Shown in pieces: positions 10,372 through 36,349 of a DNA stretch of 64,000 nucleotides (position 1 is its first letter; each line of letters starts with the position of its first letter). A program made the translations under genes and the position numbers. The notes under the pieces were generated by a model. It made no database searches, had not been told where the DNA came from, and saw only the letters and a list, made by a program, of their open reading frames with translations. Origin of the DNA: Escherichia coli (lineage in GTDB: Bacteria > Pseudomonadota > Gammaproteobacteria > Enterobacterales > Enterobacteriaceae); the NCBI RefSeq assembly GCF_013122565.1, contig NZ_CP053258.1. The stretch is one strand, 5' to 3'.

Positions 10372-10447
10372 TGGTGGGTCGTGCAGGATTCGAACCTGCG
10401 ACCAATTGATTAAAAGTCAACTGCTCTACCAACTGAGCTAACGACCC
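10372..10447 (-). tRNA. lysQ: tRNA-Lys (UUU)
   Basis: 76-nt exact copy of the tRNA-Lys sequence on the minus strand, CCA encoded, anticodon loop CUUUUAA. Confidence 0.9.
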
Positions 10448-10480
10448 CTTGCGGGATTATGCTGCTTTAATCATTCAGGA

Positions 10481-10556
10481 TGGTGGGTCGTGCAGGATTC
10501 GAACCTGCGACCAATTGATTAAAAGTCAACTGCTCTACCAACTGAGCTAACGACCC
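10481..10556 (-). tRNA. lysZ: tRNA-Lys (UUU)
   Basis: Identical 76-nt tRNA-Lys copy. Confidence 0.9.
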
Positions 10557-10604
10557 ATACGGGTGTTACCTGAAAGATTTCTACTCGGAACCAATCTTTA
10601 AAAT

Positions 10605-10702
10605 TGGTGGGTCGTGCAGGATGACTCGCTTCGCTCGCCCTACGGGCCGTTGCTGGCGCAACGTTATCCTTCACGCTTAACATCTGAGTTTGATGTTAAA
10701 AC
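10605..10702 (-). repeat. spacer repeat carrying a truncated tRNA-Lys 3' end (copy A)
   Basis: Starts with the 3'-terminal ~17 nt of tRNA-Lys (rc tggtgggtcgtgcagga) then diverges into a GC-rich ~80 bp unit; near-identical to the copy at 10909-11006. Confidence 0.6.
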
Positions 10703-10778
10703 TGGTGGGTCGTGCAGGATTCGAACCTGCGACCAATTGATTAAAAGTCAACTGCTCTACCAACTGAGCTAACGACCC
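10703..10778 (-). tRNA. lysY: tRNA-Lys (UUU)
   Basis: Identical 76-nt tRNA-Lys copy. Confidence 0.9.
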
Positions 10779-10781
10779 GAG

Positions 10782-10857
10782 TGGTGGGTGATGACGGGAT
10801 CGAACCGCCGACCCCCTCCTTGTAAGGGAGGTGCTCTCCCAGCTGAGCTAATCACCC
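10782..10857 (-). tRNA. valZ: tRNA-Val (UAC)
   Basis: 76-nt tRNA on the minus strand (rc gggtgattagctcagctgggagagcacctcccttacaagg...), anticodon UAC, CCA encoded. Confidence 0.9.
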
Positions 10858-10908
10858 GATACTGCGCTGGATACTACAAACTACTTCCACCGAACCCACC
10901 GTAATTAG

Positions 10909-11006
10909 TGGTGGGTCGTGCAGGATGACTCGCTTCGCTCGCCCTACGGGCCGTTGCTGACGCAACGTTATCCTACACGCTTAACATCTGTCTTCGATGT
11001 TAAAAT
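10909..11006 (-). repeat. spacer repeat carrying a truncated tRNA-Lys 3' end (copy B)
   Basis: Same structure as copy A with 3-4 substitutions. Confidence 0.6.
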
Positions 11007-11082
11007 TGGTGGGTCGTGCAGGATTCGAACCTGCGACCAATTGATTAAAAGTCAACTGCTCTACCAACTGAGCTAACGACCC
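11007..11082 (-). tRNA. lysW: tRNA-Lys (UUU)
   Basis: Identical 76-nt tRNA-Lys copy. Confidence 0.9.
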
Positions 11083-11084
11083 GG

Positions 11085-11160
11085 TGGTGGGTGATGACGG
11101 GATCGAACCGCCGACCCCCTCCTTGTAAGGGAGGTGCTCTCCCAGCTGAGCTAATCACCC
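11085..11160 (-). tRNA. valT: tRNA-Val (UAC)
   Basis: Identical 76-nt tRNA-Val copy. Confidence 0.9.
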
Positions 11161-11195
11161 GATACTACGCTGGATACTACAACTAACTATGTTAG

Positions 11196-11268
11196 TGGTG
11201 GGTCGTGCAGGATGACTCGACTTCGTCTCGCCCTTCGGGCCGTTGCTGACGCAACGTTATCCTTCACG
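11196..11268 (-). repeat. spacer repeat carrying a truncated tRNA-Lys 3' end (copy C, more diverged)
   Basis: Same tRNA-Lys 3' fragment followed by a related but more diverged GC-rich segment. Confidence 0.5.
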
Positions 11269-11295
11269 TTTTACTACCGCTTCCACCTTAGCGCT

Positions 11296-11371
11296 TGGTG
11301 GGTCGTGCAGGATTCGAACCTGCGACCAATTGATTAAAAGTCAACTGCTCTACCAACTGAGCTAACGACCC
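11296..11371 (-). tRNA. lysT: tRNA-Lys (UUU)
   Basis: Identical 76-nt tRNA-Lys copy; first gene of the operon on the minus strand. Confidence 0.9.
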
Positions 11372-11535: not shown

Positions 11536-12327
11536 TTACATCGCGTTCAGACGTTTTTGCGCCTGTTTAGCGCCATCAGTACCAGGGTATTTACTGATAA
11601 CCTGCTGGTATACGGCTTTCGCTTTTGCGGTGTCACCTTTGTCCTGCATGATGACGCCGACTTTAAACATCGCATCTGCAGCCTTTGGTGACTTCGGATA
11701 GTTTTTCACTACCGAAGCAAAATAGTACGCCGCATCATCTTTTTTACCCTTGTTGTAGTTTAACTGACCCAGCCAATAATTGGCGTTTGGCAGGTAAGTT
11801 GAATCAGGGTAATTTTTGATGAAATTCTGAAATGCCACCATTGCGTCATCCTGGCGGGATTTATCCTGCACCAGCGCAATAGCTGCATTGTAATCCGTGT
11901 TTGCATCGCCGCTTTTCACCGGCGCGCCAGCATTCGCAGTACCAGCATCAGCTGTCGGCGTCGTTGATGCCGCCGCACCGCTTTGATCACCGCTGGTTGA
12001 TTGCGCCGCTGCACCACCGCTGCTGAGGCTGTCGATCTGCAACAGGATCTGCTTTTGCCGCTCCACGACCTGATTCAGTTGATACTGATTTTCCTGAATC
12101 TGACCACGCAGGGAATCAATATCGGATTGATTATCAGAGAGTTGTTGCTGGAGTTGGGTTAAAAGCTGGCTGTGAGCATTAGAAATACGCTCAAGTTGAG
12201 TGACGCGGTCTTCGACCGAGCCTGAGCCGACACTACTGATTGGTGCCTGAGCAAAAGCGGCCCAGGGGGCCGCTATACCAACCAGTAACGACAGACTCAA
12301 TAGTTGATGTCTGAAGTTACTGCTCAT
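11536..12327 (-). CDS. cpoB: cell division coordinator CpoB (YbgF), periplasmic TPR protein
   Basis: 263 aa ORF with a signal peptide, Gln-rich coiled-coil N-domain and C-terminal TPR-like repeats; last gene of the tol-pal cluster. Confidence 0.9.
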   Translation of the reverse strand: MSSNFRHQLLSLSLLVGIAAPWAAFAQAPISSVGSGSVEDRVTQLERISNAHSQLLTQLQQQLSDNQSDIDSLRGQIQENQYQLNQVVERQKQILLQIDSLSSGGAAAQSTSGDQSGAAASTTPTADAGTANAGAPVKSGDANTDYNAAIALVQDKSRQDDAMVAFQNFIKNYPDSTYLPNANYWLGQLNYNKGKKDDAAYYFASVVKNYPKSPKAADAMFKVGVIMQDKGDTAKAKAVYQQVISKYPGTDGAKQAQKRLNAM

Positions 12328-12336
12328 GCAATTCTC

Positions 12337-12882
<546 letters not shown>

Positions 12883-14317: not shown

Positions 14318-15598
14318 TTACGGTTTGAAGTCCAATGGCGCGTTTTTGAACACTTCATATACTGCCTGGCTTGGTGGTTTCGGGATCTTCGCAAGTTTAG
14401 CCGCTGCCAACGCAGCCTGACAAAGTGCGGGATCGCCACCTTCAGGTTTGATATCCAGTAACATACCATCGGGTGCCAGTTTTATGCGCAGCGTACAGGT
14501 TTTGCCTGCATAGGACGATGCGTCATAGAACTTACTTTCGATAGCAGATTTAATCTGCCCGGCATAGTTATTGATATCGGCCCCTGATGCGCCATTGTTT
14601 TTAGTATTACCACTCCCGGCAGGCGAAGCATTGTTCCCTTTCGCTCCTCCCCCCGTTTTCGGTGCATTCTTACCAGAGCTTAGCTCACCGAAAATATCAT
14701 CTGCCTCTGCGGCAGCTTTTGCTGCAGCGGCTTTTTCAGCTGCTGCTTTTTCAGCTGCTGCTTTTGCAGCTGCCGCTTTTTTGTCTGCGGCGGCTTTTTC
14801 TGCCGCTGCTTTCTTATCAGCTGCTGCCTTTTCAGCAGCCGCTTTTTCTGCTGCTTTTTTGTCGGCTGCAGCTTTCTCTGCTGCCGCTTTCTTATCAGCT
14901 GCTGCCTTTTCAGCAGCCGCTTTCTTCTCAGCTTCTGCCTTGGCTTTTTCAGCAGCTTCAGTTGCTGCTTTCTTTCTTGCTTCAGCTGCAGCCGCTTCTG
15001 CCGCTTCCGCTTTCTTCTTCAGTGCCGCAGCGGCTGCCTCGGCTTTTTTCTGCGCTTCGGCTGCGGCTTTGGCGGCTTCTGCTTCTGCTTTTTTCTTCGC
15101 GTCTGCAGCCGCTTTCTTCGCTGCTTCTTCCGCAGCTTTAGCATCCGCTTCGGCCTTCGCTTTAGCATCTGCCGCCGCTTTCGCTGCCGCCTCTTCCGCT
15201 TGCTTCTGCTTTAACTCGGCCTGTTTTGCGGCTTCTTCAGCCTGCTTTTTCTGTTCCTGAGCAGCTAACCGCTCTTTCTCAAGTTGCTTCAGGCGTTCCT
15301 GTTCAGCCGCTTGTTTCTCACGCAGTTCTTCAGCAGCCTGCTGTTCCTTCATCTTGCGCTGCTCATCAGAACGCTTCGCGCTTGATTCCTGGCTTTGCAT
15401 GCGTTTGTACTGCTCAACTACCGCACCTGAATCAACCATGACAGCGTCGATGGACGAACCACCGCCGCCTCCGGCTGAAGCTTCTATATTCTCATCGAAC
15501 GAACTCCAGATCAGCGCCGCAAATAAGATGACATGCAGCACTGCTGAAATAATTATCGCCCGCTTGAGCTTGTCGTTTTGTTCGGTTGCCTTTGACAC
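14318..15598 (-). CDS. tolA: Tol-Pal system protein TolA
   Basis: 426 aa: N-terminal TM helix, long Ala/Lys/Glu-rich helical domain II, C-terminal domain III. Confidence 0.93.
   Translation of the reverse strand: MSKATEQNDKLKRAIIISAVLHVILFAALIWSSFDENIEASAGGGGGSSIDAVMVDSGAVVEQYKRMQSQESSAKRSDEQRKMKEQQAAEELREKQAAEQERLKQLEKERLAAQEQKKQAEEAAKQAELKQKQAEEAAAKAAADAKAKAEADAKAAEEAAKKAAADAKKKAEAEAAKAAAEAQKKAEAAAAALKKKAEAAEAAAAEARKKAATEAAEKAKAEAEKKAAAEKAAADKKAAAEKAAADKKAAEKAAAEKAAADKKAAAEKAAADKKAAAAKAAAEKAAAEKAAAAKAAAEADDIFGELSSGKNAPKTGGGAKGNNASPAGSGNTKNNGASGADINNYAGQIKSAIESKFYDASSYAGKTCTLRIKLAPDGMLLDIKPEGGDPALCQAALAAAKLAKIPKPPSQAVYEVFKNAPLDFKP
14700..15230. repeat. imperfect tandem repeats inside tolA (domain II coding region)
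   Basis: Near-identical ~40 bp blocks (gccgc(tg)ctttcttatcagctgctgccttttcagcagccgcttt) recur at 14802-14846 and 14883-14923 among many shorter gctgc/cttt units. Confidence 0.7.
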
Positions 15599-17188: not shown

Positions 17189-17337
17189 TTTACATCCCGG
17201 TAATGCAACAAAAGTTAGAGCTTTTAAACGCTGCTACTATACGCGCGCGATTGAGGTTTGGGAATGAGGGCAAGTTAAGGGAGCGTAAAAATTTATGGGC
17301 CTGAAGCGGCCCATAATTTTTTAAAGAGAATTCTGAT

Positions 17338-17631
17338 TTAAAAGAAGAAGAAAATCAGCCCGACAATGAGAACAATATCGGCAAGCAATGGGCAAAAAAT
17401 CCCTTGCCAGAGAACCTTCTGCGGACGAAAGCCCACGCCGTGAATCACACCAGCACAGACGGCCCACATCAGCAATAAACCATGCCAGATTTCCAGCTCA
17501 CTGGTCTTCGCGGCAAAACGAGATGGGTCCCAAAACATACATCCTGCTAACAGAAGCGCCATCACGAAGGAAAGCGCCCGCAGGGGGCGCTTGTCCATTA
17601 CCGCATACAAGGTCGCGATAATCTTACTCAT
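17338..17631 (-). CDS. ybgE: small inner-membrane protein YbgE (cyd operon)
   Basis: 97 aa hydrophobic ORF downstream of cydX; its start codon overlaps the cydX stop by 1 nt. Confidence 0.8.
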   Translation of the reverse strand: MSKIIATLYAVMDKRPLRALSFVMALLLAGCMFWDPSRFAAKTSELEIWHGLLLMWAVCAGVIHGVGFRPQKVLWQGIFCPLLADIVLIVGLIFFFF

Positions 17632-17744
17632 CAGATGTCTTCTTGACCGGCTTTGCCTGATTCGACGTGCTCAAGCGCCAGCGCGGTGATTACCCCAAAC
17701 GAACAGGCAAGAAGCGTTCCCAGAATCCATGCGAAATACCACAT
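17631..17744 (-). CDS. cydX: cytochrome bd-I accessory small subunit CydX (YbgT), 37 aa
   Basis: Absent from the ORF track (too short). Minus-strand ATG at 17744 after an aggagc RBS, 14 nt downstream of the cydB stop; translates to MWYFAWILGTLLACSFGVITALALEHVESGKAGQEDI. Confidence 0.85.
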   Translation of the reverse strand: MWYFAWILGTLLACSFGVITALALEHVESGKAGQEDI

Positions 17745-17758
17745 TTTTAGCTCCTTAC

Positions 17759-18898
17759 TTAGTACAGAGAGTGGGTGTTACGTTCAATATCTTCTTTGGT
17801 GATACGACCGAACATTTTCCAGTAACACCAGGCGGTGTAGAGCAGAATGATCGGTACCAGAACCACCGCAACCCAGGTCATGACGTTAAGCGTCAGCTGG
17901 CTGGAAGTTGCATCCCACATTGTCAGACTTGCGTTCATCATGGTGCTGGACGGCATCACAAACGGGAACATTGCGATACCGGCAGTCAGGATGATGCAGG
18001 CCAGCGTCAGGGAGGAGAACACAAACGCCCACGCGGCTTTATCCATACGTGCAGTCAGGATGGTCAGCAGCGGCAGAACTACACCCAGTGCCGGAATAGC
18101 CCACAGAATTGGCGTGTTGTTGAAGTTAACCAGCCATGCGCCAGCTTCACGAACCACTACTTTATTCTGCGGGTTAGAGGCTGCGTAATGGTCCATTGTC
18201 GATTTCACGACATAACCATCGATACCGTACATCACCCATACGCCAGCCAGTGCGAAGCAGACCAGTGTCACCAGTGCCGCCACCTGAGCCGTTGCACGGG
18301 TACGCAGGTGCAGTTCGCCCACGGTACGCATTTGCAGATAGGTTGCGCCCTGAGTAATGATCATCCCTACGCTCACCACGCCTGCCAGCAGGCCGAACGG
18401 ATTAAGCAACTGAAAGAAGTTACCGGTGTAGTACAGACGCAGATATTCATCAACGTTGAACGGTACGCCCTGCAACAGGTTACCGAACGCTACACCAATT
18501 ACCAGCGGCGGAACGAAGCTACCAATGAAGATGCCCCAGTCCCACATGTTACGCCAGCGGGTTTCTTCAATCTTGGAGCGGTAGTCAAAACCGACCGGAC
18601 GGAAGAACAAAGACGCCAGCACGAGGATCATCGCCACATAGAAGCCGGAGAACGCAGCGGCATAGACCATCGGCCAGGCAGCAAAGAGTGCGCCGCCCGC
18701 GGTGATCAGCCAAACCTGGTTACCGTCCCAGTGTGGAGCAATGGAGTTAATCATAATTCGACGCTCGGTGTCGTTACGACCGAGAAAACGGGTGAGCATG
18801 CCCACCCCCATGTCGAAACCGTCAGTGACTGCAAAACCAATCAGCAGAACGCCAACCAGCAGCCACCAGATAAAACGCAATACTTCATAATCGATCAT
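17759..18898 (-). CDS. cydB: cytochrome bd-I ubiquinol oxidase subunit II
   Basis: 379 aa polytopic membrane ORF directly downstream of cydA. Confidence 0.95.
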   Translation of the reverse strand: MIDYEVLRFIWWLLVGVLLIGFAVTDGFDMGVGMLTRFLGRNDTERRIMINSIAPHWDGNQVWLITAGGALFAAWPMVYAAAFSGFYVAMILVLASLFFRPVGFDYRSKIEETRWRNMWDWGIFIGSFVPPLVIGVAFGNLLQGVPFNVDEYLRLYYTGNFFQLLNPFGLLAGVVSVGMIITQGATYLQMRTVGELHLRTRATAQVAALVTLVCFALAGVWVMYGIDGYVVKSTMDHYAASNPQNKVVVREAGAWLVNFNNTPILWAIPALGVVLPLLTILTARMDKAAWAFVFSSLTLACIILTAGIAMFPFVMPSSTMMNASLTMWDATSSQLTLNVMTWVAVVLVPIILLYTAWCYWKMFGRITKEDIERNTHSLY

Positions 18899-18913
18899 TT
18901 GACGACTCCTGTC

Positions 18914-20482
18914 TTAGCGTGCCGGCTGAGTAGTCGTGGAAGACTGCTCAAAGTGATAGCGACCGGTTTTCAGGCTGCTTGGGCCGAGGCGTGCAAACTT
19001 GAACATTAAGAACAATTCTGCCACCAGGAACAGGGTATACAGGCCGCAAATCAGCACCATTGAGAAGATGAGATCGCCTGCGGTCAGTGACGAGTTCGCC
19101 ACAGCTGTCGGCAGCACTTCACCGATAGCCCACGGTTGGCGGCCATATTCAGCCACGAACCAGCCCGCTTCTACAGCAATCCACGGCAGCGGAATACCGT
19201 ACAGCGCGGCGCGCAGCAGCCATTTTTTCTCGCCAATGCGGTTGCGGATGACACTCCAGAAAGAGAGCGCGATGATTGCCAGCAGCAGGAAGCCACACGC
19301 CACCATGATACGGAACGCGAAGTACAGCGGCGCTACACGCGGAATGGAGTCTTTGGTTGCCTGTTGAATCTGAGCTTCAGTCGCATCAGCCACGTTTGGC
19401 GTATAGCGTTTCAGCAGCAGACCGTAACCGAGGTCTTTCTTCATGCTATTGAACTGGTCACGAACCGCCTGGTCGGTAGAACCAGAACGCAGTTGTTCGA
19501 GCAGAGAGTAAGCCTTCATCCCGTTACGAATGCGTTCTTCATGCTGCACCATCAGTTCTTTCAGGCCGATAACTGGAGTATCCACGGAACGCGTTGCAAT
19601 GATGCCCAGCGCGTAAGGGATCTGGATCGCAAATTTGTTCGTCTCCTCTTCCTGATCAGGAATGCCGAACAGAGTAAAGGCAGCAGGCGCAGGTTGCGTT
19701 TCCCACTCGGCTTCAATAGCAGCCAGTTTGGTTTTCTGCACGTCGCCCATTTCGTAACCAGATTCATCACCCAGAACAATAACAGACAGAACGGCAGCCA
19801 TACCGAAGCTGGCAGCGATAGCAAAGGAGCGTTTAGCGAAGGCGAAGTCACGACCTTTCAGCATATACCATGCGCTGATACCGAGGATGAACATCGCGCC
19901 AGTCACATAACCAGACGCTACAGTGTGAACGAATTTCACCTGAGCAACCGGGTTAAGCACCAGCTCGGAGAAGCTCACCATCTCCATACGCATAGTTTCA
20001 AAGTTGAAATCGGACGCGATTGGGTTTTGCATCCAGCCGTTCGCAACCAGAATCCACAGTGCGGACAGGTTTGAACCGAGCGCCACCAGCCAGGTGACAC
20101 ACATATGCTGAACTTTACCCAGACGATCCCAACCGAAGAAGAACAGACCTACAAAGGTGGATTCGAGGAAGAAGGCCATCAGACCTTCGATTGCCAGCGG
20201 CGCACCGAAGATATCCCCTACATAGTGGGAATAGTAAGACCAGTTAGTCCCGAACTGGAACTCCATAGTCAGACCGGTAGCCACACCCAGAGCGAAGTTG
20301 ATACCAAACAACTTGCCCCAGAACTTGGTCATATCTTTATAAATCTGTTTGCCGGAAAGGACGTAGACCGTTTCCATAATGGCCAGCAGGAACGCCATAC
20401 CGAGCGTCAGTGGCACAAAAAGGAAGTGGTACATCGCGGTCAAGGCAAACTGTAAGCGCGACAGTTCGACTATATCTAACAT
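18914..20482 (-). CDS. cydA: cytochrome bd-I ubiquinol oxidase subunit I
   Basis: ORF 18914..20485 trimmed to the second Met ([28 protein letters not shown]) after an aggag RBS; 522 aa. Confidence 0.95.
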
Positions 20483-21287
20483 CATGACTCCTTGCTCATC
20501 GCATGAAGACTCCGAGAGTGAACCCCGTTAGAAAGGGTCACACGCATGCCCCAATACAAAATTATTTGCTCGCCTCTATCGTTGCCATTTCATCAAAAGA
20601 GGAAAAGACAATGATAAAAAAGTTGCAAATATGTTAATGAATAAACCAAATTGATCCCGTAATTATATTACGCCGCAAAATCCTTACAATAAACAGGTTT
20701 TTATTGAGCAAATTTGCATTTTTCGACAGTGATCAATTTATAGCGAAATTGTCACGATCTCACCAATTTGATCTACGACAATTTATCGTGTTTTGCAGAT
20801 TTTTTTCAAGAATTAAAAATTGATTTATATCAAAACTAACCAAATATGTTAATTATGTATAAACCATAGATCATTAGTGATTTTATTGTTAATTTATTGT
20901 GAAATATTTATGCAACACAATTATTACAATGAAAAGGTATAGATAAAAAACCAGTGTTGTATTTAACAGAACCGCCTTATCCACTTTTTATAATACCAAT
21001 TGATTAGAGTAGCCAATTTGTTGCTATTTTACATAACATATTTTTATCAAAGTTAATTGATTGTTGCCTTTATGAGCACCGACCGTAAGCCCGTTATGTT
21101 ATTGTTTCATTGGTAATAATCACTTAAATGTATCGATGGAACAGGTATGACTTAGCGGGAGTGATTGTTTCTGAGTGAACAGGGGCCACTTTTGCCTGAT
21201 AAATGAAAAATGAGCGATTTTTGCAAGTTAGTTTTTCTATAGCCGTGTACGCTCAGCGCCTCGCTTGATTACAATGAGGTTGCTGCT
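20483..21287. promoter_or_regulatory. long AT-rich cydA upstream regulatory region, shared with the divergent 314-aa ORF
   Basis: About 800 bp non-coding, strongly AT-rich with several TTGAT/ATCAA-like half-sites; the cydAB promoter region is remembered as long and multi-promoter. Individual sites not resolved. Confidence 0.5.
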
Positions 21288-22232
21288 ATGAGTCCTGATA
21301 ATATCGGTTCGGCTGTCAATCGCTTCTCAGGTTGGCCATCTAATGATCCTCTAAAAACAGATAAAGAATCAACGACATCACCCGTGACAGTGCAGGTAAT
21401 AAAGATGATTGCCGCCATCCTTGACCCACATCGGATAGTCGTTGGAATCGATACACTTTATACAACGCAGCGCGAAACATTTACCTCAGAGAGTCAACAG
21501 CTCATTGAATCAGCATTGCAAACACTTCATGTGATGAATTTAAATAACCTGGAAACAAATCGCGATGAAGAAGGTCACTATCTGGCTTTTGAATATAACG
21601 TTGACACCTCTGACAGAATAACCGTTTCTGCTTACAATGAAAAAAATCCTGGCTGCTATGGCCAATGTCTTTTAATACAGGATGACGAAACAGACTTATT
21701 CAACCTGATAAAAATTAAAATTTTTGAAGCCAGGCATAATTATGTCGCTCAATTGATGAGCGATCCAGAATTTATGTTCAAATTCAGTTATAGCGCTCAA
21801 CAAAATAGATTAGAACCTCATCTTCTGGTTCCCGCTTATTTCCCTCTAAAAACAAACGAACCGGTTACGCAAGAGGATGTACTGTTACTTTATCGTTTCT
21901 TTAAAATGAATGATGATTTTAACAAATTAACATCAGATGAATACATGAGTATCCTGACACCTCTGATGAAGTGTGAGCGTAGCGTCCACGACAACAACAG
22001 GTATGTGACGGGCAAAGATACCCTTCTTCTGGACTATCCTCCTTCTGGTAACCAGATACATTTCCATGTTTTCCCTGACGAATCAGCAACACTAGTCCTT
22101 TATTTTTCAAACAATGACCTTGAATATTTCGTCTTTGAAAGAGATATTCCGAGCCAGTATCGCTTTTTCAAAATGTTTACCAATCTGGCACTGGTTATAG
22201 ATCAGTTAACCGAAGCCCATAAAATACTTTAA
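21288..22232 (+). CDS. hypothetical protein, 314 aa, AT-rich codon usage, no recognisable motif
   Basis: ATG at 21288 with a GAGG RBS 8 nt upstream; Ser/Thr/Pro-rich N-terminus; no family recognised by eye. Confidence 0.55.
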   Translation: MSPDNIGSAVNRFSGWPSNDPLKTDKESTTSPVTVQVIKMIAAILDPHRIVVGIDTLYTTQRETFTSESQQLIESALQTLHVMNLNNLETNRDEEGHYLAFEYNVDTSDRITVSAYNEKNPGCYGQCLLIQDDETDLFNLIKIKIFEARHNYVAQLMSDPEFMFKFSYSAQQNRLEPHLLVPAYFPLKTNEPVTQEDVLLLYRFFKMNDDFNKLTSDEYMSILTPLMKCERSVHDNNRYVTGKDTLLLDYPPSGNQIHFHVFPDESATLVLYFSNNDLEYFVFERDIPSQYRFFKMFTNLALVIDQLTEAHKIL

Positions 22233-22312
22233 TTTTCTATATATCCCTATGGCAAATATTGCTAAACAATGCCTGGGGATTAATTTTTATTACTCACGGA
22301 AAGATTTAAATA

Positions 22313-22735
22313 ATGATATCATCTCAGATCTCTTTCAGTACTCTTCCTGTCAATGCAACATACGCTTCAGAGACAACAGTTGACACACAAAAATTCTCTG
22401 ACATCCTCTACTCAGCGGGGTGTTCCCTAAAGGATATGGCTTATCTGAGCAGATGTCTGGCATCAATACACCCGACTATCGCCAAAAACATTTATGAAAC
22501 AGAAAATCTCAGCGATCAAAAATTACTGCATATTGATTGCCGTAGTACAAATGACATCAAGATAAATATCTTTTTTGGTCAGCAACGAGAAGGATTAATT
22601 GAAATTAGTTCTGACACAGTTATTTTTTCGATACTGTCTTCATTGATTGACTCCGCCATTTCTAAATTTCAACATCAAAACCCGGTTAACGGTTCAGTTA
22701 ATCCTGAACTATTGTATGAGGATTATACTGATTAA
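22313..22735 (+). CDS. hypothetical small acidic protein, 140 aa
   Basis: Co-directional ORF 80 bp after the 314-aa ORF, same AT-rich composition; weak RBS, so the start is uncertain. Confidence 0.45.
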   Translation: MISSQISFSTLPVNATYASETTVDTQKFSDILYSAGCSLKDMAYLSRCLASIHPTIAKNIYETENLSDQKLLHIDCRSTNDIKINIFFGQQREGLIEISSDTVIFSILSSLIDSAISKFQHQNPVNGSVNPELLYEDYTD

Positions 22736-23281
22736 ATCCACCCTGTCGCGAAAAATGGCCTGCGTTATTGCCAGACGTAATAAAACCTTTGATTAACGTT
22801 ACTCATACTGATAGCACCTTCATGTACCTCTCTTTTTTACGCAAATCAAAAGAGCTAACGAAGGTCATAATTCGCATGAATCATTAACCATTTGTTATTT
22901 TCAACATTACTTTTACATTAAGCAGAAATGAATGGTAGTGAAATTCGACTTAAATTTTATGAAATGCATTTACTTATGGCTAAACCCATATCACTAAAAT
23001 GCAAATTAGAAGTAGATCACAAATATCTCAATACACCAAATCAAGTTAATTTTAAAAATTTAACATTCATGACATTAGTTGACATAACACACTGAATTAA
23101 CATGGAAATTTAAAAACACACTTTAAACAATCATTTCCCGAAAGACATTTTGAAAATAGATCAATTGCAACATTACGGTCAGATAAAGACACTCCTGTGA
23201 TATTAAACCTGTGCCGTTATGAACGGCCATAAATACGACGTGTGTAACTTATTTTACTCTCTGTCTTACAAAGGATTACCC

Positions 23282-23731
23282 ATGAAGAAAGCAACACTTG
23301 TGATTGGCGTTATTGGCGCGGACTGCCATGCAGTAGGCAATAAAGTTCTGGACCGCGTTTTTAGCAACCACGACTTCAGAGTCATTAATCTGGGCGTAAT
23401 GGTCAGCCAGGACGAATATATTGATGCTGCCATTGAAACTGGCGCTGACGCGATTGTCGTCTCCTCTATCTATGGGCATGGCGATATCGACTGTCTGGGC
23501 ATGCGCGAACGCTGCATCGAGCGTGGACTGGGGGACATCCTGCTCTATGTGGGCGGTAACCTGGTGGTAGGAAAACATGACTTCGCTGACGTGGAAAACA
23601 AGTTCAAAGAGATGGGATTTGATCGCGTCTTTGCCCCAAGTCATGACTTAGAAGAGGTTTGTCAGCTGATGGCCCACGATATCAACCAACGTCATGACGT
23701 TGATACTCGCATTCTTGAAGAGGCAATCTGA
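23282..23731 (+). CDS. mamA: glutamate mutase sigma (S) subunit, B12-binding (methylaspartate mutase small subunit)
   Basis: ORF 23219..23731 trimmed to the ATG at 23282 after AAGGA; [24 protein letters not shown] carries the DxHxxG cobalamin-binding motif and aligns with clostridial GlmS/MutS. Confidence 0.85.
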
Positions 23732-25119
23732 TGCAAATCGTCTCTGTCGATATTGGATCGACGTGGACCAAAGCAGCCCTCTTCACCCGGGAGGGGGACG
23801 CGTTAACGTTGGTTAACCACGTACTGACCCCAACCACCACCCATCATCTGGCGAAGGGGTTTTTCTCCAGCCTGAACCAGGTGTTAAACGTAGATAATGC
23901 CCTCCCCCTGTTAAACAGCGGTGAGGTTGCATTGAAGTATTCCTCCTCTGCCAAAGGTGGGCTGGCGGTTGCCGCAATGGGATTGGTGCCTTCTATCACC
24001 CTGGAAACCGCGAAAGTAACCGCTCACTCTGCGGGTGCTAAAATTGCGCAATATTACGCCTACAAGCTGAACCGCCGTGATATCCAGGCACTGGAAGAAA
24101 CGCAGCCCGATATTCTCTTGTTCACCGGCGGCACCGACGGCGGAGAAGAAAGCTACGGACTGAATAACGCCCGTGTGCTGGCAGAATCCAAACTCGACTG
24201 CGCCATTATTTATGCCGGAAACCGGGATATTCAGGACGAGGTGCAGGAGATCCTCGGACATAAAGACCTGACCATCGTCGACAACGTTCTGCCCGATCTT
24301 GACCATCCGAACCCTTTAGCCGCACGCCAGGCTATCTGCGACATATTCCTTAAACGCATCGTTAAAGGGAAAGGGCTGGATGTCATTGTTGATAAAACAG
24401 GCGAAGAACCAATGCCGACACCATGGACGGTCTTTGAACTGGTTAAGGCAATCAGTAACGTCGATCACAGCTGGAAAGAGTTCATGCTGATCGACATGGG
24501 CGGCGCAACCACCGATGTCTATTCCGCCTGTGCCAACACGCTCTCGCCCGACACCGTTTTACACGGCGTACCGGAACCCTTCGTAAAACGGACGGTGGAA
24601 GGCGATCTGGGAATGCGCGTCTCGGCAATGGTGGTTGGTGAAAGTGCGAAAGAGTTAGTCAATGTAAATTTTGCTCAGCAACCCGCACAGCTGGACGCTT
24701 TTTATCATTACCTCCGTCATTTAGTCGCTCATCCCGACTACTTACCCGCGAATGCAGAAGAAAAATATTTCGATACCGTCCTGGCCGGACTGTGTGTGGG
24801 TTATGCCACCGAAAGACATGCGGGCACCAAAAAAGAGGTCTGCACCTGCGTCGGCAATGTCGATTTACAAATGGGACGTGACCTGACAACCGTGCGTAAA
24901 GTCGTCGGATCCGGCGGATGGCTCTCGCGTGCCAGTCAGTTCGATATGCATCACTGGTTGAAATACCGCGAGTTAAACGACGACGGTAAACGCATTCTCT
25001 TACCGACCGAATTTGAATATTACCGCGATTCCCGGGGGCTATTACCACTGCTGGCAAACGTCGCCAGAGTCGATCCGCTGGCCGCCGCGCGCACCAGTAT
25101 TCAATGCTTAACCCTATAA
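23731..25119 (+). CDS. glmL: glutamate mutase L protein (GlmL/MutL, putative chaperone/reactivase)
   Basis: 462 aa, starts [18 protein letters not shown] (actin-like ATPase N-terminus); start overlaps the S-subunit stop (tgATG); sits between S and E as in clostridial operons. Confidence 0.8.
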   Translation: MQIVSVDIGSTWTKAALFTREGDALTLVNHVLTPTTTHHLAKGFFSSLNQVLNVDNALPLLNSGEVALKYSSSAKGGLAVAAMGLVPSITLETAKVTAHSAGAKIAQYYAYKLNRRDIQALEETQPDILLFTGGTDGGEESYGLNNARVLAESKLDCAIIYAGNRDIQDEVQEILGHKDLTIVDNVLPDLDHPNPLAARQAICDIFLKRIVKGKGLDVIVDKTGEEPMPTPWTVFELVKAISNVDHSWKEFMLIDMGGATTDVYSACANTLSPDTVLHGVPEPFVKRTVEGDLGMRVSAMVVGESAKELVNVNFAQQPAQLDAFYHYLRHLVAHPDYLPANAEEKYFDTVLAGLCVGYATERHAGTKKEVCTCVGNVDLQMGRDLTTVRKVVGSGGWLSRASQFDMHHWLKYRELNDDGKRILLPTEFEYYRDSRGLLPLLANVARVDPLAAARTSIQCLTL

Positions 25120-25137
25120 CAATTAAGGCTGCAATCA

Positions 25138-26583
25138 ATGGAACTTCGAAATAAGAAATTAACCCATGACGAATTCATGACCGAGCGGCAACAGGTACTG
25201 AAAACCTGGGAAACCGGCAAGGATGTTGAAAATTTTGAAGATGGCGTTAAATACCAACAAACCATTCCTGAGCATAAACGCTTCTCTCTCGCCCTGCTGA
25301 AAGCAGACAAGGAAGGTAAAACCCTTAGCCAACCGCGCGCAGGTGTGGCGCTGATGGACGAACACATCGAACTACTGAAAACACTACAAGAAGAGTGCGA
25401 TCTGCTGCCAAGCACCATCGATGCATATACCCGTCTGAATCGGTACGAAGAAGCGGCTGTAGGGATTAAAAAATCCATCGAAGCCGGAACCTCTAAACTG
25501 AACGGTTTACCGGTAGTTAACCACGGAGTCGCAGCTTGCCGTCGCCTCACCGAAACCCTGCAAAAACCGCTACAGATCCGCCACGGCACGCCAGATGCGC
25601 GTCTGCTGGCTGAAATCTCGATGGCCAGTGGCTTTACCAGTTACGAAGGCGGCGGCATTTCCTACAACATTCCGTATGCCAAACGCGTAACGCTGGAAAA
25701 ATCGATCCGCGACTGGCAGTACTGCGACCGTTTAATGGGGATGTATGAAGAACACGGGATCCGCATCAACCGCGAACCATTTGGCCCACTAACGGGTACG
25801 CTGATCCCGCCGTTTATCTCGCACTCTATCGCCATAATCGAAGGCTTGCTGGCGCTGGAACAGGGTGTGAAATCTATCACCGTTGGTTATGGCCAGGTCG
25901 GCAGCCTGACGCAGGATGTTGCGGCGATCCAGTCTCTGCGTGAACTTGCACATGAATACTTTCAGAGCTATGGCTATACCGACTATGAATTAAGTACCGT
26001 GTTTCACCAGTGGATGGGCGGCTTTCCGGAAGACGAATCGAAAGCGTTCGCTATTATCTCCTGGGGCGCAGCCGTCGCGGGGATGTCTGGTGCCACCAAA
26101 GTCATCACCAAAAGTCCGCACGAAGCCTGGGGTATCCCAACTGCCGCTGCCAACATTCAGGGGCTGAAAGCCTCCCGCCAGATGCTCAACATGGTCAATG
26201 AGCAGAAATTCCCGCCATGCCCTGCGGTTGAACTGGAAATTGAACTGATTAAGAGCGAGGTTCGCGCGGTACTGAATAAAGTGTTCGAACTGGGTAATGG
26301 TGATATTGCGCGCGGTACGGTGCTGGCATTTGAAGCGGGCGTACTGGATGTGCCGTTTGCGCCAGCCGCCTGCAACGCGGGCAAAATTCTTCCGGTCCGT
26401 GACAACACCGGCGCGATACGCGTACTGGAAGCCGGAGCCGTTCCATTGCCAAAAGATATTCTCGACCTCCACCACGATTACGTTGCGGAACGCGCACGCT
26501 GTGAAGGACGCCAACCGACATTCCAGATGGTTGTAGATGACATCAATGCTGTATCCCACAGTAAATTAATAGGAAGACCATAA
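25138..26583 (+). CDS. mamB: glutamate mutase epsilon (E) catalytic subunit (methylaspartate mutase large subunit)
   Basis: 481 aa, starts MELRNKKLTHDEFMTERQQVLKTW; conserved blocks PRAGVALMDEHIELL, HGTPDARLLAEI, FHQWMGGFPEDESKAF match clostridial GlmE. Confidence 0.88.
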   Translation: MELRNKKLTHDEFMTERQQVLKTWETGKDVENFEDGVKYQQTIPEHKRFSLALLKADKEGKTLSQPRAGVALMDEHIELLKTLQEECDLLPSTIDAYTRLNRYEEAAVGIKKSIEAGTSKLNGLPVVNHGVAACRRLTETLQKPLQIRHGTPDARLLAEISMASGFTSYEGGGISYNIPYAKRVTLEKSIRDWQYCDRLMGMYEEHGIRINREPFGPLTGTLIPPFISHSIAIIEGLLALEQGVKSITVGYGQVGSLTQDVAAIQSLRELAHEYFQSYGYTDYELSTVFHQWMGGFPEDESKAFAIISWGAAVAGMSGATKVITKSPHEAWGIPTAAANIQGLKASRQMLNMVNEQKFPPCPAVELEIELIKSEVRAVLNKVFELGNGDIARGTVLAFEAGVLDVPFAPAACNAGKILPVRDNTGAIRVLEAGAVPLPKDILDLHHDYVAERARCEGRQPTFQMVVDDINAVSHSKLIGRP

Positions 26584-27824
26584 TGAAAATAAAACAGGCC
26601 CTGTTCACCGCTGGCTATTCCTCATTCTATTTCGATGACCAGCAGGCGATAAAAAACGGAGCGGGTCACGACGGCTTTTTTTATACCGGGGAGCCAGTAA
26701 CACAGGGGTTTAACGCCGTACGTCAGGCCGGGGAGTGCGTATCGGTACAGTTGATTCTGGAAAACGGCGCGGTCGCTGTAGGTGACTGTGCTGCCGTACA
26801 GTATTCCGGGGCAGGTGGTCGCGATCCACTGTTCCTCGCAGAGCACTTTATTCCGTTCCTCAACGACCATATTAAGCCATTACTGGTAGGCCGCGATGTG
26901 GATACTTTCCTGCCGAATGCCCGTTTCTTCGACAAATTGCGTATTGACGGCAACTTGCTGCATACCGCCGTGCGCTACGGATTATCACAGGCGCTGCTTG
27001 ATGCTACCGCGCTGGCAACCGGCCGTCTGAAAACTGAAGTGGTCTGTGATGAATGGCAGTTGCCACGCGTGGCGGAATCCATTCCATTATTTGGTCAGAG
27101 CGGCGACGATCGATATATCGCCGTCGATAAGATGATCCTTAAGGGCATCGACGTGCTGCCCCATGCGCTGATTAATAACGTCGAAGAGAAGCTGGGCTTT
27201 AAAGGTGAAAAACTGAGCGAATATGTCCGCTGGTTGTCGGATCGCATTCTAAGCAAGCGCACCAGCGCGCGCTACCACCCTACCCTGCACATCGATGTAT
27301 ACGGCACTATCGGTCTGATCTTCGATATGGATCCGCTCCGCTGTGCGCAATACATCGCCAGCCTGGAAAAAGAAGCGCAAGGCCTGCCGCTCTACATCGA
27401 AGGGCCGGTCGATGCCGGTAACAAGCCCGATCAAATTCGCCTGCTGACCGCGATTACCAAAGAGCTGACGCGCCTCGGTTCCGGCGTGAAAATTGTGGCC
27501 GATGAATGGTGTAACACCTACCAGGATATTGTTGATTTCACTGATGCTGCCAGTTGTCACATGGTGCAAATCAAAACCCCGGATCTGGGCAGTATTCACA
27601 ACATCGTCGATGCGGTTCTTTACTGCAACAGCCACAGCATGGAAGCGTACCAGGGCGGCACCTGCAATGAAACTGATGTCAGTGCCCGCACCTGTGTCCA
27701 CGTCGCCCTTGCCGCTCGCCCTATGCGTATGCTGGTAAAACCAGGGATGGGCTTTGACGAAGGCCTCGATATCGTCTTCAACGAAATGAATCGTACTATC
27801 GCGCTGTTGCAGGCTAAGGATTAA
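26583..27824 (+). CDS. 3-methylaspartate ammonia-lyase (beta-methylaspartase)
   Basis: 413 aa, start overlaps the E-subunit stop (taATG); blocks CAAVQYSGAGGRDPLF, FGQSGDDRY, HMVQIKTPDLG, CNET match clostridial methylaspartase (enolase superfamily). Confidence 0.88.
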   Translation: MKIKQALFTAGYSSFYFDDQQAIKNGAGHDGFFYTGEPVTQGFNAVRQAGECVSVQLILENGAVAVGDCAAVQYSGAGGRDPLFLAEHFIPFLNDHIKPLLVGRDVDTFLPNARFFDKLRIDGNLLHTAVRYGLSQALLDATALATGRLKTEVVCDEWQLPRVAESIPLFGQSGDDRYIAVDKMILKGIDVLPHALINNVEEKLGFKGEKLSEYVRWLSDRILSKRTSARYHPTLHIDVYGTIGLIFDMDPLRCAQYIASLEKEAQGLPLYIEGPVDAGNKPDQIRLLTAITKELTRLGSGVKIVADEWCNTYQDIVDFTDAASCHMVQIKTPDLGSIHNIVDAVLYCNSHSMEAYQGGTCNETDVSARTCVHVALAARPMRMLVKPGMGFDEGLDIVFNEMNRTIALLQAKD

Positions 27825-27827
27825 CAA

Positions 27828-29198
27828 ATGGCTCGTTCTTTTAAAGTCTTATCGCCAACGGCAATCCTCGGGTATGGATTCCCGGAAGAGAGCTTCCGCA
27901 AAGCGATGGCAGAATCGCCCGATCTGATCGCCGTTGATGCCGGCTCTTCCGATCCAGGCCCCCACTACCTCGGGGCAGGCAAACCGTTTACCGATCGCGC
28001 AGGGGTCAAGCGCGATCTGCGCTATATGATCACCGCAGGCGTGCAAAATAATATACCGGTGGTGATCGGAACGGCTGGCGGTTCTGGTGCCGCACCACAC
28101 CTGGAGTGGTGCCGAGAAATAATTCATGAGATTGCCCGGGAAGAGCACCTCTCGTTCTCGATGGCGTTGATCCCGGCAGACGTTGACAAAGCCATCGTCC
28201 ACCAGGCGCTGGATAACGGCAAAATCACGGCGCTGGATTTTGTCCCGCCGTTAACCCACGACGCGATTGACGAAAGTACGTATATCGTTGCGCAAATGGG
28301 CATCGAACCCTTCCAGCGGGCTCTGAAAGAAGGCGCGCAAGTGGTGCTGGGCGGGCGCGCTTACGACCCGGCCTGCTTTGCTGCGCTCCCGATCATGCAA
28401 GGCTTTGATGAAGGTCTGGCGCTGCATTGTGGGAAAATCCTTGAGTGCGCAGCAATCGCCGCAACGCCCGGCTCAGGCTCTGACTGTGCGATGGGCATCA
28501 TTGATGACAACGGCTTTACGCTGAAGACATTTAATCCGAAGCGTAAATTTACCGAAACGTCAGCAGCTGCACACACACTGTATGAAAAATCCGATCCCTA
28601 CTTCCTGCCAGGACCTGGCGGCGTGTTGAACCTGAAAGGCTGCACATTTAAAGCAGTCAATGACGGCGAAGTCTACGTCAGCGGTTCTAAGCATGAAGAA
28701 ACGCCGTATGCCCTGAAACTGGAAGGTGCACGACGGGTGGGCTTCCGCTGTCTGACCATCGCCGGAACGCGCGACCCGATCATGATCGCCGGGATCGATA
28801 AAATCATCGATGAAGTCAAAATCAGCGTTTCGCGTAACCTGTCGCTTGACGATGACAGCATTCGCATCAATTTCCACCTGTACGGCAAAAACGGGGTGAT
28901 GGGCGACCATGAACCGATGCAAACTACCGGGCATGAGCTGGGGATTGTCCTTGATGTAGTTGCACCGACCCAGGAAATTGCCAACAGCGTTTGCTCGCTG
29001 GTGCGCTCTACCATGCTGCACTACGGCTATGAAAACCGCATCGCTACCGCAGGCAACCTGGCGTTCCCGTTCTCCCCTTCTGATATCCAGGGCGGGCCGG
29101 TATACGAATTTTCCATATATCACCTGATTGAAGCCAACGACGCTCTGCGTTTTGATTTCCATATTGAACAGGTGACGCCAGAAGGAGTTCAGGTATGA
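27828..29198 (+). CDS. uncharacterised protein, 456 aa (tentatively AtuA-like/DUF1446-type; family not verified)
   Basis: ATG at 27828 with AAGGA 7 nt upstream, 3 bp after the methylaspartase stop; Gly-rich, no cofactor motif recognised by eye. Confidence 0.6.
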   Translation: MARSFKVLSPTAILGYGFPEESFRKAMAESPDLIAVDAGSSDPGPHYLGAGKPFTDRAGVKRDLRYMITAGVQNNIPVVIGTAGGSGAAPHLEWCREIIHEIAREEHLSFSMALIPADVDKAIVHQALDNGKITALDFVPPLTHDAIDESTYIVAQMGIEPFQRALKEGAQVVLGGRAYDPACFAALPIMQGFDEGLALHCGKILECAAIAATPGSGSDCAMGIIDDNGFTLKTFNPKRKFTETSAAAHTLYEKSDPYFLPGPGGVLNLKGCTFKAVNDGEVYVSGSKHEETPYALKLEGARRVGFRCLTIAGTRDPIMIAGIDKIIDEVKISVSRNLSLDDDSIRINFHLYGKNGVMGDHEPMQTTGHELGIVLDVVAPTQEIANSVCSLVRSTMLHYGYENRIATAGNLAFPFSPSDIQGGPVYEFSIYHLIEANDALRFDFHIEQVTPEGVQV

Positions 29199-29512
29199 AA
29201 CAGTCAATTGTCTCACTGGCGCAAGTCATTCGTTCGAAAAATGCCGGTCCTTACGAACTGGTTTTAGATATTTTATTTAAAACGAAAGAAAACTATGAGC
29301 GAGTTAAATCATCAGGGCAATTAACCCCAGAACTGATTGCGCGCTTATATCATGTTGAACCTGACTTTATTCATCGTATTGTCTGGTTTGATCCTTCTAA
29401 CGCAGTAAAAATCGTCATGCCACGAGATATTATCTCCGGGAATGTAGGTGACAATGATGTCTATGGTGCACAGCAACATGCACCTTTATTAAATATGAGT
29501 TTCGATTTGTAA
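29195..29512 (+). CDS. uncharacterised small protein, 105 aa, translationally coupled to the preceding ORF
   Basis: ATG at 29195 overlaps the upstream stop (ATGA); no recognisable motif. Confidence 0.55.
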   Translation: MKQSIVSLAQVIRSKNAGPYELVLDILFKTKENYERVKSSGQLTPELIARLYHVEPDFIHRIVWFDPSNAVKIVMPRDIISGNVGDNDVYGAQQHAPLLNMSFDL

Positions 29513-29672
29513 AAATCCGAACACTTTTAGCCAACTGACATCCCATCACTTATTGCAGTTCAACACTTCAGCTATTTGTAAGGTTGTAATAGCAGGTAGA
29601 TGCCTGAGTCTCTATTCAGGCATCTACTTCTCCTGATTCTGATTTATCGCCGTGCACCTGATGGAGGAAAAA

Positions 29673-30953
29673 ATGAAGAAAATAAGTTTAACCACGATGA
29701 TTCTTTTGGCGCTGGTACTTGGAATGATTATCGGCGTAGTGCTCAATAACACTGCTTCACCGGAAACCGCAAAACTCTATGCGCAAGAAATATCGATATT
29801 CACGACGATTTTCTTACGACTGATAAAAATGATTATCGCTCCGTTAGTGGTCTCTACCCTGGTGGTAGGTATAGCTAAAATGGGCGATGCCAAAGCCCTT
29901 GGTCGTATTTTTTCTAAAACACTTTTTTTATTTATTTGCGCCTCATTGCTGTCAATTGCCTTAGGCTTGATAACAGTAAATTTCTTCATGCCAGGCACAG
30001 GAATTAATTTTGTTGCACACGGAGCCGAAACCACCGGAGTGGTCGCGTCAGAACCCTTTACGCTAAAAGTATTTATTTCGCATGCTTTCCCCACCAGCAT
30101 TGTCGATGCCATGGCGCACAATGAAATTTTGCAAATCGTGGTGTTCTCAATTTTCCTCGGCTGTAGCCTGACGGCGATTGGCGAGAAAGGCAGCGCCATC
30201 GTTCACGCCTTAGATTCGCTGGCACATGCCATGTTAAAGCTCACTGGCTACGTCATGCTCTTCGCTCCCCTGACCGTATTCGCCGCTATTTCAGCATTGA
30301 TTGCTGAACGAGGACTGGCAGTTATGGTGAGCGCCGGGATCTTTATGGGTGAATTTTATTTCACCATGTTGTTACTTTGGGTACTGCTTATCGGTCTGGC
30401 CATCGTTTATGTCGGCCCCTGCATCAGACGCCTGACCCGCGCCCTTTCGGAACCCGCCCTGCTGGCATTTACCACATCCAGTTCTGAAGCGGCTTTTCCG
30501 GGAACGCTTGAAAAACTGGAGCAATTTGGCGTTTCCCCCAAAATTGCCAGCTTTGTCTTACCCATTGGCTACTCATTTAATCTCGTTGGATCAATGGCCT
30601 ACTGCTCCTTCGCCACAGTTTTCATCGCCCAGGCCTGCAATATCCATTTATCCATCGGTGAGCAAATCACCATGCTGTTGATCCTGATGTTGACCTCGAA
30701 AGGAATGGCTGGCGTACCACGCGCCTCAATGGTGGTTATCGCCGCCACGCTCAACCAGTTCAATATTCCGGAAGCAGGGCTGATCTTGCTGATGGGCGTT
30801 GATCCGTTCCTTGATATGGGGCGTTCCGCGACAAACGTCATGAGCAACGCAATGGGCGCTGCGATGGTGAGTCGGTGGGAAGGCGAACATTTCGGCGAGG
30901 GCTGTCGGGGTAAAGCATTAAAACCCAATGAATCGAACGTTGCTCTGCCCTGA
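29673..30953 (+). CDS. dicarboxylate/amino acid:cation symporter (GltP/DctA family), candidate glutamate or C5-dicarboxylate transporter
   Basis: ORF 29652..30953 trimmed to the ATG at 29673 after GGAGGA; polytopic, with the family serine-rich motif (TTSSSEAAFPGTLEKLE) as in GltP. Confidence 0.8.
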   Translation: MKKISLTTMILLALVLGMIIGVVLNNTASPETAKLYAQEISIFTTIFLRLIKMIIAPLVVSTLVVGIAKMGDAKALGRIFSKTLFLFICASLLSIALGLITVNFFMPGTGINFVAHGAETTGVVASEPFTLKVFISHAFPTSIVDAMAHNEILQIVVFSIFLGCSLTAIGEKGSAIVHALDSLAHAMLKLTGYVMLFAPLTVFAAISALIAERGLAVMVSAGIFMGEFYFTMLLLWVLLIGLAIVYVGPCIRRLTRALSEPALLAFTTSSSEAAFPGTLEKLEQFGVSPKIASFVLPIGYSFNLVGSMAYCSFATVFIAQACNIHLSIGEQITMLLILMLTSKGMAGVPRASMVVIAATLNQFNIPEAGLILLMGVDPFLDMGRSATNVMSNAMGAAMVSRWEGEHFGEGCRGKALKPNESNVALP

Positions 30954-31060
30954 GGGGGATCTTAAGCAATCAGAAGCCAATGACTACGCATTTTTATAAG
31001 CCGGATCATGAAGTTAGACGGCAATTAAGTAACACTAACGTTTAAGGTGAAAAGTGAAAT

Positions 31061-32713: not shown

Positions 32714-32722
32714 GGAAAATGA

Positions 32723-33325
32723 ATGGAAGCGCGAATTTCAACTGAACGGCATGTGCAGCGCCAGCAGAAATTGAAGGAACAGGTCGATACGCGCGTCGCG
32801 GCGGCGATAGAGAAAAAAGGGATCTTGATTGTTTTCACCGGCAATGGCAAAGGGAAATCCACTGCCGCGTTTGGTACGGTGACGCGCGCGGTGGGTCATG
32901 GCAAAACGGTGGGGGTTGCGCAGTACATCAAGGGGCAATGGGACAACGGCGAATACAACCTTCTCCAGCCGCTCGGGGTTGAGTTTCATATTATGGGAAC
33001 CGGTTTTACCTGGGAGACACAGAACCGGCAAGCGGATATCGACGCGGCGAAAGAGGTCTGGTCGGAAAGCAAACGGATGCTGGCTGACAAGCGTTACGAC
33101 TTAGTGGTGCTTGATGAGCTGACCTATATGCTGGCTTACCATTATCTGGATACCGAAGAAGTGATCGCTTCTCTGCAAAACCGCCCGGCACAACAAAGTG
33201 TCATTGTCACCGGACGCGGTTGCCACAGTCAGATATTAAAAATGGCGGATACGGTCAGCGAAATCCGCCCCGTCAAACATGCTTTTGATAACGGCATTCA
33301 GGCCCAGCCGGGTATCGACTGGTAA
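32723..33325 (+). CDS. cob(I)alamin adenosyltransferase, BtuR/CobA-family paralogue
   Basis: 200 aa with P-loop GNGKGKSTAAFG and full-length similarity to BtuR as remembered; AAGGA RBS; last gene of the operon. Confidence 0.85.
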   Translation: MEARISTERHVQRQQKLKEQVDTRVAAAIEKKGILIVFTGNGKGKSTAAFGTVTRAVGHGKTVGVAQYIKGQWDNGEYNLLQPLGVEFHIMGTGFTWETQNRQADIDAAKEVWSESKRMLADKRYDLVVLDELTYMLAYHYLDTEEVIASLQNRPAQQSVIVTGRGCHSQILKMADTVSEIRPVKHAFDNGIQAQPGIDW

Positions 33326-33328
33326 TAA

Positions 33329-33356
33329 CTGCGCCTGGCATCCCGCCAGGCGCAGG
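33329..33356. terminator. bidirectional terminator between the B12-operon end and the convergent LysR gene
   Basis: Perfect 11-bp inverted repeat ctgcgcctggc / gccaggcgcag around a 5-nt loop, followed by gtttt. Confidence 0.7.
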
Positions 33357-33358
33357 TT

Positions 33359-36252: not shown

Positions 36253-36274
36253 AAAAGGCCATCATACGATGGCC
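36251..36274 (-). terminator. rho-independent terminator of the sdh-suc transcript / SdhX
   Basis: Hairpin ggccatc-gtat-gatggcc followed on the minus strand by a U-run (plus-strand aaaaaa at 36251-36256); begins immediately after the RtcB-like stop codon. Confidence 0.75.
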
Positions 36275-36349
36275 AACCATGTCGAAACCGACAGCCCTTC
36301 GCCATTCCTGTAGAGGGAAGCGGCGAGGGCTATTTCTTATTACAGATAT
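36251..36349 (-). ncRNA. sdhX: putative SdhX (RybD) sRNA from the sucD 3' UTR
   Basis: About 100 nt between the sucD stop (36350) and the terminator; contains ...caggaauggcgaagggcugucgguuucgacaugguuggccaucguaugauggccuuuu, which matches my recollection of the SdhX 3' region. Confidence 0.5.

Follow-up and report, generated by a model that had tools for sequence, protein, structure and literature searches.

The 37-codon minus-strand ORF lying between cydB and ybgE in the window (the whole stretch of 64,000 nucleotides of Escherichia coli DNA analysed here) is a real gene under purifying selection, and it is almost certainly the canonical E. coli cydX (formerly ybgT, b4515), the third gene of cydABX-ybgE. 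An earlier note, made from the letters of the sequence, had placed such an ORF here, and its coordinates, strand and length proved to be exact. According to the strand as read and the list of ORFs, the frame runs from 17744 to 17631 (−), with an ATG start, 37 sense codons and a TGA stop at 17633..17631, and its translation is MWYFAWILGTLLACSFGVITALALEHVESGKAGQEDI. In the minus strand of 17300..17900, the cydX frame has its start codon and contains neither a frameshift nor an internal stop, and is thus as intact as had been supposed. The cydB gene ends with a TAA codon at 17761..17759, and the spacer between this stop and the cydX ATG is 14 nt long (gtaaggagctaaaa). The strong ribosome-binding site (RBS) attributed to the ORF corresponds to the sequence TAAGGAG (17757..17751, minus strand), separated from the ATG by 6 nt, for which pairing with the 16S rRNA 3' end is predicted to have an energy of −8.4 kcal/mol. 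Among the 2,134 ATGs of the window, 98.4% have a Shine-Dalgarno (SD) sequence no stronger than this one, as do about 90% of its 57 long ORFs. Positions 1–24 of the peptide carry no charge and hydropathy reaches 2.05 over 19 residues, as expected of a protein forming a single transmembrane helix, and the tail is acidic. The features of the locus are listed in Table 1.

Table 1. Coordinates, in the window, of the cyd genes and signals and of the two shortest frames recovered in the RBS scan.
Feature	Position	Strand	Description or basis
cydX	17631..17744	−	37 codons; one-helix accessory subunit of cytochrome bd-I
SD sequence TAAGGAG	17751..17757	−	sequence and duplex energy
TGATG junction, cydX stop/ybgE start (common base 17631)	17629..17633	−	sequence
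ybgE, 97 aa, last gene of the operon	17338..17631	−	PF09600, 116 bits; NF007881, 185 bits (cut-off 116)
cydB, cytochrome bd-I subunit II, 379 aa	17759..18898	−	PF02322, 369 bits; NF011579, 861 bits (cut-off 718)
cydA, cytochrome bd-I subunit I, 522 aa	18914..20482	−	annotated cydA CDS of ET201, mapped
Terminator-like hairpin (stem of 9 bp, then a T-run)	17293..17316	−	just past the ybgE stop
Frames of 11–12 aa with a weak SD sequence	21175..21213; 38621..38656	+	RBS scan

The identity of the protein is supported by profile, structural and annotation evidence, all of which bears out the name proposed for the ORF in the earlier note. The peptide matched the Pfam family PF08173 (YbgT_YccB) with 53.9 bits (cut-off 26.2; E = 1.8e-14) and the NCBIfam model TIGR02106 (cyd_oper_ybgT, the CydX equivalog) with 70.7 bits (cut-off 31.6; E = 9.1e-20). 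A search of the PDB found its sequence in nine entries, including 6RKO, chain X of which (“Cytochrome bd-I ubiquinol oxidase subunit X”) is identical at 37/37 positions. The ORF also displays the features of the family, with a length of 37 aa (members have about 30–50 residues), one hydrophobic helix, a conserved N-terminal motif (MWYFxW...G) and a variable hydrophilic C-terminus, and its position is that expected of the family, directly after cydB in the same orientation, cydA being located further upstream. RefSeq labels it “cydX: cytochrome bd-I oxidase subunit CydX” (WP_000270282.1), and cydX was annotated in 10/10 records among the matches listed, the K-12 MG1655 gene being b4515. The 701-nt stretch around cydX was present, at an identity of at least 95%, in 5,425 of the 5,426 complete E. 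coli genomes. No feature of the sequence speaks against this identity. The gene is therefore already known: CydX has been the subject of genetic, biochemical and structural studies, and the standard NCBI pipeline annotates it. It had been described as missing from the ORF track, and a cut-off of 60 aa would indeed drop it, but it is included in public annotation; its absence from the track would be due to the length cut-off alone. The K-12 protein (YbgT, b4515, YP_588444.1; chain X of 6RKO and 6RX4) is identical over all 37 residues. The K-12 gene occupies the same position between cydB and ybgE, with the 14-nt spacer containing the SD sequence and the 1-nt overlap with ybgE, and differs from that of the window by a single synonymous nucleotide. 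The identity with chain X argues that the product is a physical subunit of cytochrome bd-I here.

The conservation of the frame was assessed on 80 cyd loci from other species, fetched with CydB as the query and extending from Escherichia albertii to Shewanella and Gilliamella. The homologous ORF was open in all 80, with an ATG start and a length of 31–46 aa, directly after cydB, from which it was separated by 12–30 nt. Its SD sequence was also conserved, with a median energy of −8.4 kcal/mol and values of −6 kcal/mol or lower in 78/80 loci. Substitutions were counted over the ungapped first 26 codons of 81 sequences, in which 76 distinct nucleotide sequences encoded 35 peptides. The mean pairwise differences at codon positions 1, 2 and 3 were 0.17, 0.05 and 0.49, respectively, and pN/pS was about 0.14. 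Residues M1, Y3, W6 and C14 were invariant in the 81 sequences and positions 2, 4–5 and 7–13 were at least 90% conserved, the tail being variable in both sequence and length. This profile, with the N-terminus kept and the tail free, agrees with the functional map of CydX (PMC6005532, PMC4325964).

These alignments also bear on the possibility that the same DNA encodes some other product, namely a 23-aa frame with a GTG start (17742..17671) or one of two plus-strand frames (17653..17802 and 17667..17750), a reading that we consider very improbable. The GTG frame was picked up by the RBS scan because it has its SD sequence (−8.4 kcal/mol) in common with cydX, but it corresponds to the +2 sense frame, in which stops were found in 51/81 homologues (the other alternative sense frame contained stops in 62/81), and it was rejected on this basis. 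One antisense frame was open in 79 of the 81 homologous sequences. However, a stop in that frame requires TTA, CTA or TCA in the sense strand across codon positions 3-1-2, that is, a Tyr, His or Gln codon preceded by a T or C then T context, and the conserved hydrophobic peptide of CydX rarely gives such codons. The openness of the antisense frame therefore follows from the CydX peptide and, as neither it nor the GTG frame has a family match or an annotation, an antisense gene was also rejected.

It is still less credible that cydX is an untranslated frame left open by chance in the cydB-ybgE spacer. We found 100 ORFs of at least 20 aa in the 7 kb around cydX, most of them meaningless, and 37 codons carry little information; length alone does not raise the ORF above chance, but homology, identity with a chain of known structure and conservation of the frame do. 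A chance frame would not be expected to remain open in 81/81 sequences from several genera, given the number of different nucleotide sequences and peptides involved, with variation mostly confined to third codon positions, whereas the other frames, save the antisense one discussed above, contained stops in 42–71 of the 81 sequences. The strength and conservation of the SD sequence, and the identity of the peptide with a chain resolved by cryo-EM in the purified enzyme, also argue against this reading, which was rejected on the basis of cross-genus frame conservation and the pN/pS value.

An equally implausible reading, in which the ORF would be the bd-II paralogue AppX/CbdX or a generic member of the YbgT family rather than the bd-I subunit, draws on the N-terminal MWY..W common to both proteins and on weak matches to 7OSE chain C (E = 0.015) and NF011333 (E = 1.3e-4), but the latter reached only 21.7 bits against a cut-off of 57, whereas the CydX model was passed; the adjacent cydB passes NF011579 and fails the alternative subunit-II model NF011602 (511 vs 681 bits); the neighbours are CydA, YbgE and tol-pal, with no appB (cbdB) upstream; and the peptide is that of the bd-I subunit in 6RKO, so that AppX/CbdX was rejected for missing the model cut-off and for the wrong gene context.

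With the ORF taken as cydX, its product can be compared with other small subunits. AppX/CbdX (7OSE chain C, 7OY2 chain X) is a one-helix PF08173 paralogue of CydX, only weakly similar to it in sequence and encoded in the app operon, outside the window; it binds subunit I in the same position as CydX (PMC8951039). CydS, from the cytochrome bd of Geobacillus thermodenitrificans (5DOQ), is also a single helix, which occupies the equivalent place on CydA and has been proposed to stabilise the complex in the same way, although its tilt is different (PMC8951039), and no match between it and the cydX peptide was obtained in the PDB search at E values up to 1. The fourth bd-I subunit, CydH/CydY (YnhF), is a one-helix protein of about 3 kDa belonging to the same complex, but it binds the opposite side of CydA, and it blocks an oxygen access site (PMC8951039); its sequence is unrelated to that of CydX, and ynhF lies outside both the cyd operon and the window. 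The Kdp K+-ATPase has a 29-aa subunit, KdpF, that resembles CydX in being a one-helix accessory subunit encoded in the operon of its own complex, with a strong SD sequence and a length below the cut-off. It differs in its unrelated sequence, its complex, its position as the first gene of the operon and its GTG start.

On the minus strand, cydA is followed by cydB, cydX and ybgE, and then by ybgC-tolQRA-tolB-pal-cpoB. The cydA start used here is the annotated second ATG, the ORF extending to 20485 from the first. Terminator-like sites were absent from the 14-nt cydB-cydX spacer and from the cydX-ybgE overlap, and the sole such site downstream of cydB within the gene block was that located after ybgE. 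The lack of an internal terminator in cydB-cydX-ybgE fits co-transcription as cydABX-ybgE, the name under which the operon has been described (PMC6005532), and we infer that cydX and ybgE are co-transcribed. The stop of cydX had been said to overlap the start of ybgE, and the two do share one base, within TGATG. The overlap was of 1 nt in 49 of the 67 loci with a YbgE homologue, and an overlap of some length was present in 58/67. The SD sequence of ybgE itself is weak (−2.4 kcal/mol). This arrangement suggests that translation of the two genes is likely to be coupled. The weak SD sequence, the shared stop base and the retention of the overlap across loci can be taken further, to a reading in which YbgE synthesis would depend on the translation of CydX, with cydX acting as a translational gate fixing the amount of YbgE, a conserved membrane protein, relative to the oxidase; we regard this gate as a tentative proposal, and rather doubtful. 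No oxidase phenotype resulted from the insertion of a kanamycin cassette in between cydX and ybgE (PMC6005532), implying that coupling, if it occurs, is of consequence for YbgE but not for the oxidase. No match was obtained at or near cydX when the window was scanned with Rfam. Further along the same strand, the cpoB/ybgF intercistronic RNA thermometer (RF02782, 142 bits) was found at 12298..12436 (−), across the pal-cpoB junction. The tolA ORF (14318..15598, −) is 426 aa long from its first start; its 1,281 nt were aligned with a reference gene of 1,266 nt, indicating that its Ala/Lys-rich central repeat differs slightly in length from that of the compared strains.

The role of CydX can be outlined from published work. 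The association of the protein with the complex and its requirement for activity come from the literature, on the basis of experiments in K-12, and would apply to the protein encoded here. CydX associates with CydAB and is needed for oxidase activity, and its homologues complement the deletion (PMC4325964). In cryo-EM structures, it lies along CydA, touching helices 1, 4, 5, 6 and 7 near haem b558, and it is needed for assembly, stability and activity, including those of the di-haem site (PMC8951039, citing Hoeser et al. 2014, FEBS Lett 588:1537). An M1P mutant of the start codon behaves like a deletion, and function is lost when residues 2–11 are replaced, whereas the last six residues are dispensable and every single alanine substitution is tolerated, so that the role of CydX is seen as mainly structural; the discussion of the same paper also states that the AppX paralogue overlaps with CydX in function (PMC6005532). 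The earlier statement that CydX is needed for bd-I activity is thus in agreement with the literature, with the nuance that its contribution is mainly structural. In the mechanism that we consider for the window, cydX would be transcribed together with cydA and cydB and would be translated from its own strong SD sequence, giving a protein of 37 residues that has one transmembrane helix (residues ~1–24, uncharged) and a short acidic C-terminal tail. This helix would pack on the transmembrane helices of CydA near haem b558, and the packing would stabilise the assembly of the oxidase, including the di-haem active site. Cells without CydX would, as a consequence of the loss of this stabilisation, have little cytochrome bd-I activity.

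It had also been inferred from cydX that the window contains functional genes too short to pass the length cut-off, and this holds, as kdpF, ybgU and ybgV are all intact. At least four proteins of less than 50 aa annotated in K-12 (CydX, KdpF, YbgU and YbgV) are encoded in the window, and kdpF, ybgU and ybgV all lie in core-genome spacers. The kdpF gene (62920..63009, +) has 29 codons, a GTG start and an SD sequence of −10.6 kcal/mol; its product reached 76.7 bits with NF011332 (cut-off 56), and an ORF cut-off of 60 aa would hide it too. The ybgU (35 aa, 46619..46726, +) and ybgV (10 aa, 46710..46742, +) genes overlap each other in the sdhC-gltA spacer and are 100% identical to K-12 b4735 and b4768. 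No NCBIfam match was found for ybgU (ybgV, at 10 aa, is too short for the scan), and neither gene has a PGAP annotation in the compared strain. Close to kdpF, ybgA is directly followed by ybfA (68 aa, 62401..62607, −) and then by kdpF itself, and the K-12 DNA carrying ybfC, ybfQ, ybfL and ybfD, fetched for comparison, had no match in the window; we take this K-12 stretch to be part of the RhsC element.

RBS scoring was applied to the intergenic ORFs of the whole window (ATG or GTG start, 10–70 aa, SD duplex of −6 kcal/mol or lower), with a gene mask transferred from annotation, and recovered cydX and kdpF as the two strongest candidates. Five candidates were obtained, as against 13.7 ± 3.8 in shuffled spacers, so the window contains no excess over the latter; the other three were the alternative frame of cydX and the two frames of 11–12 aa listed in Table 1. 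The SD sites of ybgU and ybgV are weak, and both genes were missed: RBS scoring is therefore specific, but not sensitive. A mask based on the greedy choice of the longest ORFs was discarded because cydX was missed with it, cydB having been outcompeted by an antisense ORF of 426 aa. This ORF (17729..19009, +) is longer than cydB, overlaps the start of cydX and has no annotation. A naive longest-ORF caller would take it, assign the locus to the wrong strand and hide cydX.

The spacers of the island located between the region upstream from cydA and sucD had been singled out for a closer look at short frames, but they yielded no ORF with a credible RBS or a family match. They contain 12 ORFs of at least 25 aa, the best SD sequence of which is −5.0 kcal/mol; none of the 10 compared with Pfam had a significant match (best E = 0.36, below the cut-off); the Pfam scan covered all but 29553..29636 and 34397..34474 (TTG/ATG starts, 27 and 25 aa). 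A weaker possibility is that these spacers hold small proteins lacking a canonical SD sequence, which would be invisible to a scan of this type.

The island itself extends over about 15 kb (20859..36247). It carries genes for methylaspartate mutase (glmS/L/E), methylaspartate ammonia-lyase, an AtuA-like protein, a DUF4387 protein, a dicarboxylate symporter, a class I fumarase, cobO, a LysR regulator and RtcB, and is about 98% identical to the relatives compared. The mngR-mngA-mngB genes, found at this position in K-12 and alongside the island in ET201, are absent from the window, and a direct RtcB-sucD junction was present in 156 of 5,426 complete E. coli genomes. The first gene of the island (21288..22232, +), in AT-rich DNA beside the cydA promoter region, encodes a protein of 314 aa labelled “hypothetical protein” (WP_072141578.1 in other strains), for which no NCBIfam match was found. 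Two island ORFs are intact here, one encoding a hypothetical protein of 140 aa (22313..22735, +) and the other a LysR-type regulator of up to 311 aa (33359..34294, −), and both are marked by RefSeq as frameshifted pseudogenes in ET201 and PT62. Just beyond the island, the sRNA SdhX, from the 3' UTR of sucD (36251..36349, −), is identical to that of K-12 at 99/99 aligned nucleotides, and gave no match in the Rfam scan at the gathering threshold. Elements of the naRNA4/REP type (RF02564) lie in the sucC-sucB (38474..38544, −) and sucA-sdhB (42918..42988, +) spacers. Elsewhere in the window, a tRNA array (10372..11371, −) comprises seven genes (five Lys-UUU and two Val-UAC) with three RtT-like repeats (RF00391) interspersed; the array has five genes in ET201 and seven, in a somewhat different order, in K-12. 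Divergence from K-12 is unusually high in the fimbrial genes ybgD (75% identity) and ybgP (85%).

For the biology of cytochrome bd-I, cydX in this window brings nothing new. The gene serves as a calibration point, or positive control, a gene of 37 codons having been correctly identified from raw sequence, and it illustrates that a length cut-off hides real genes in this window.
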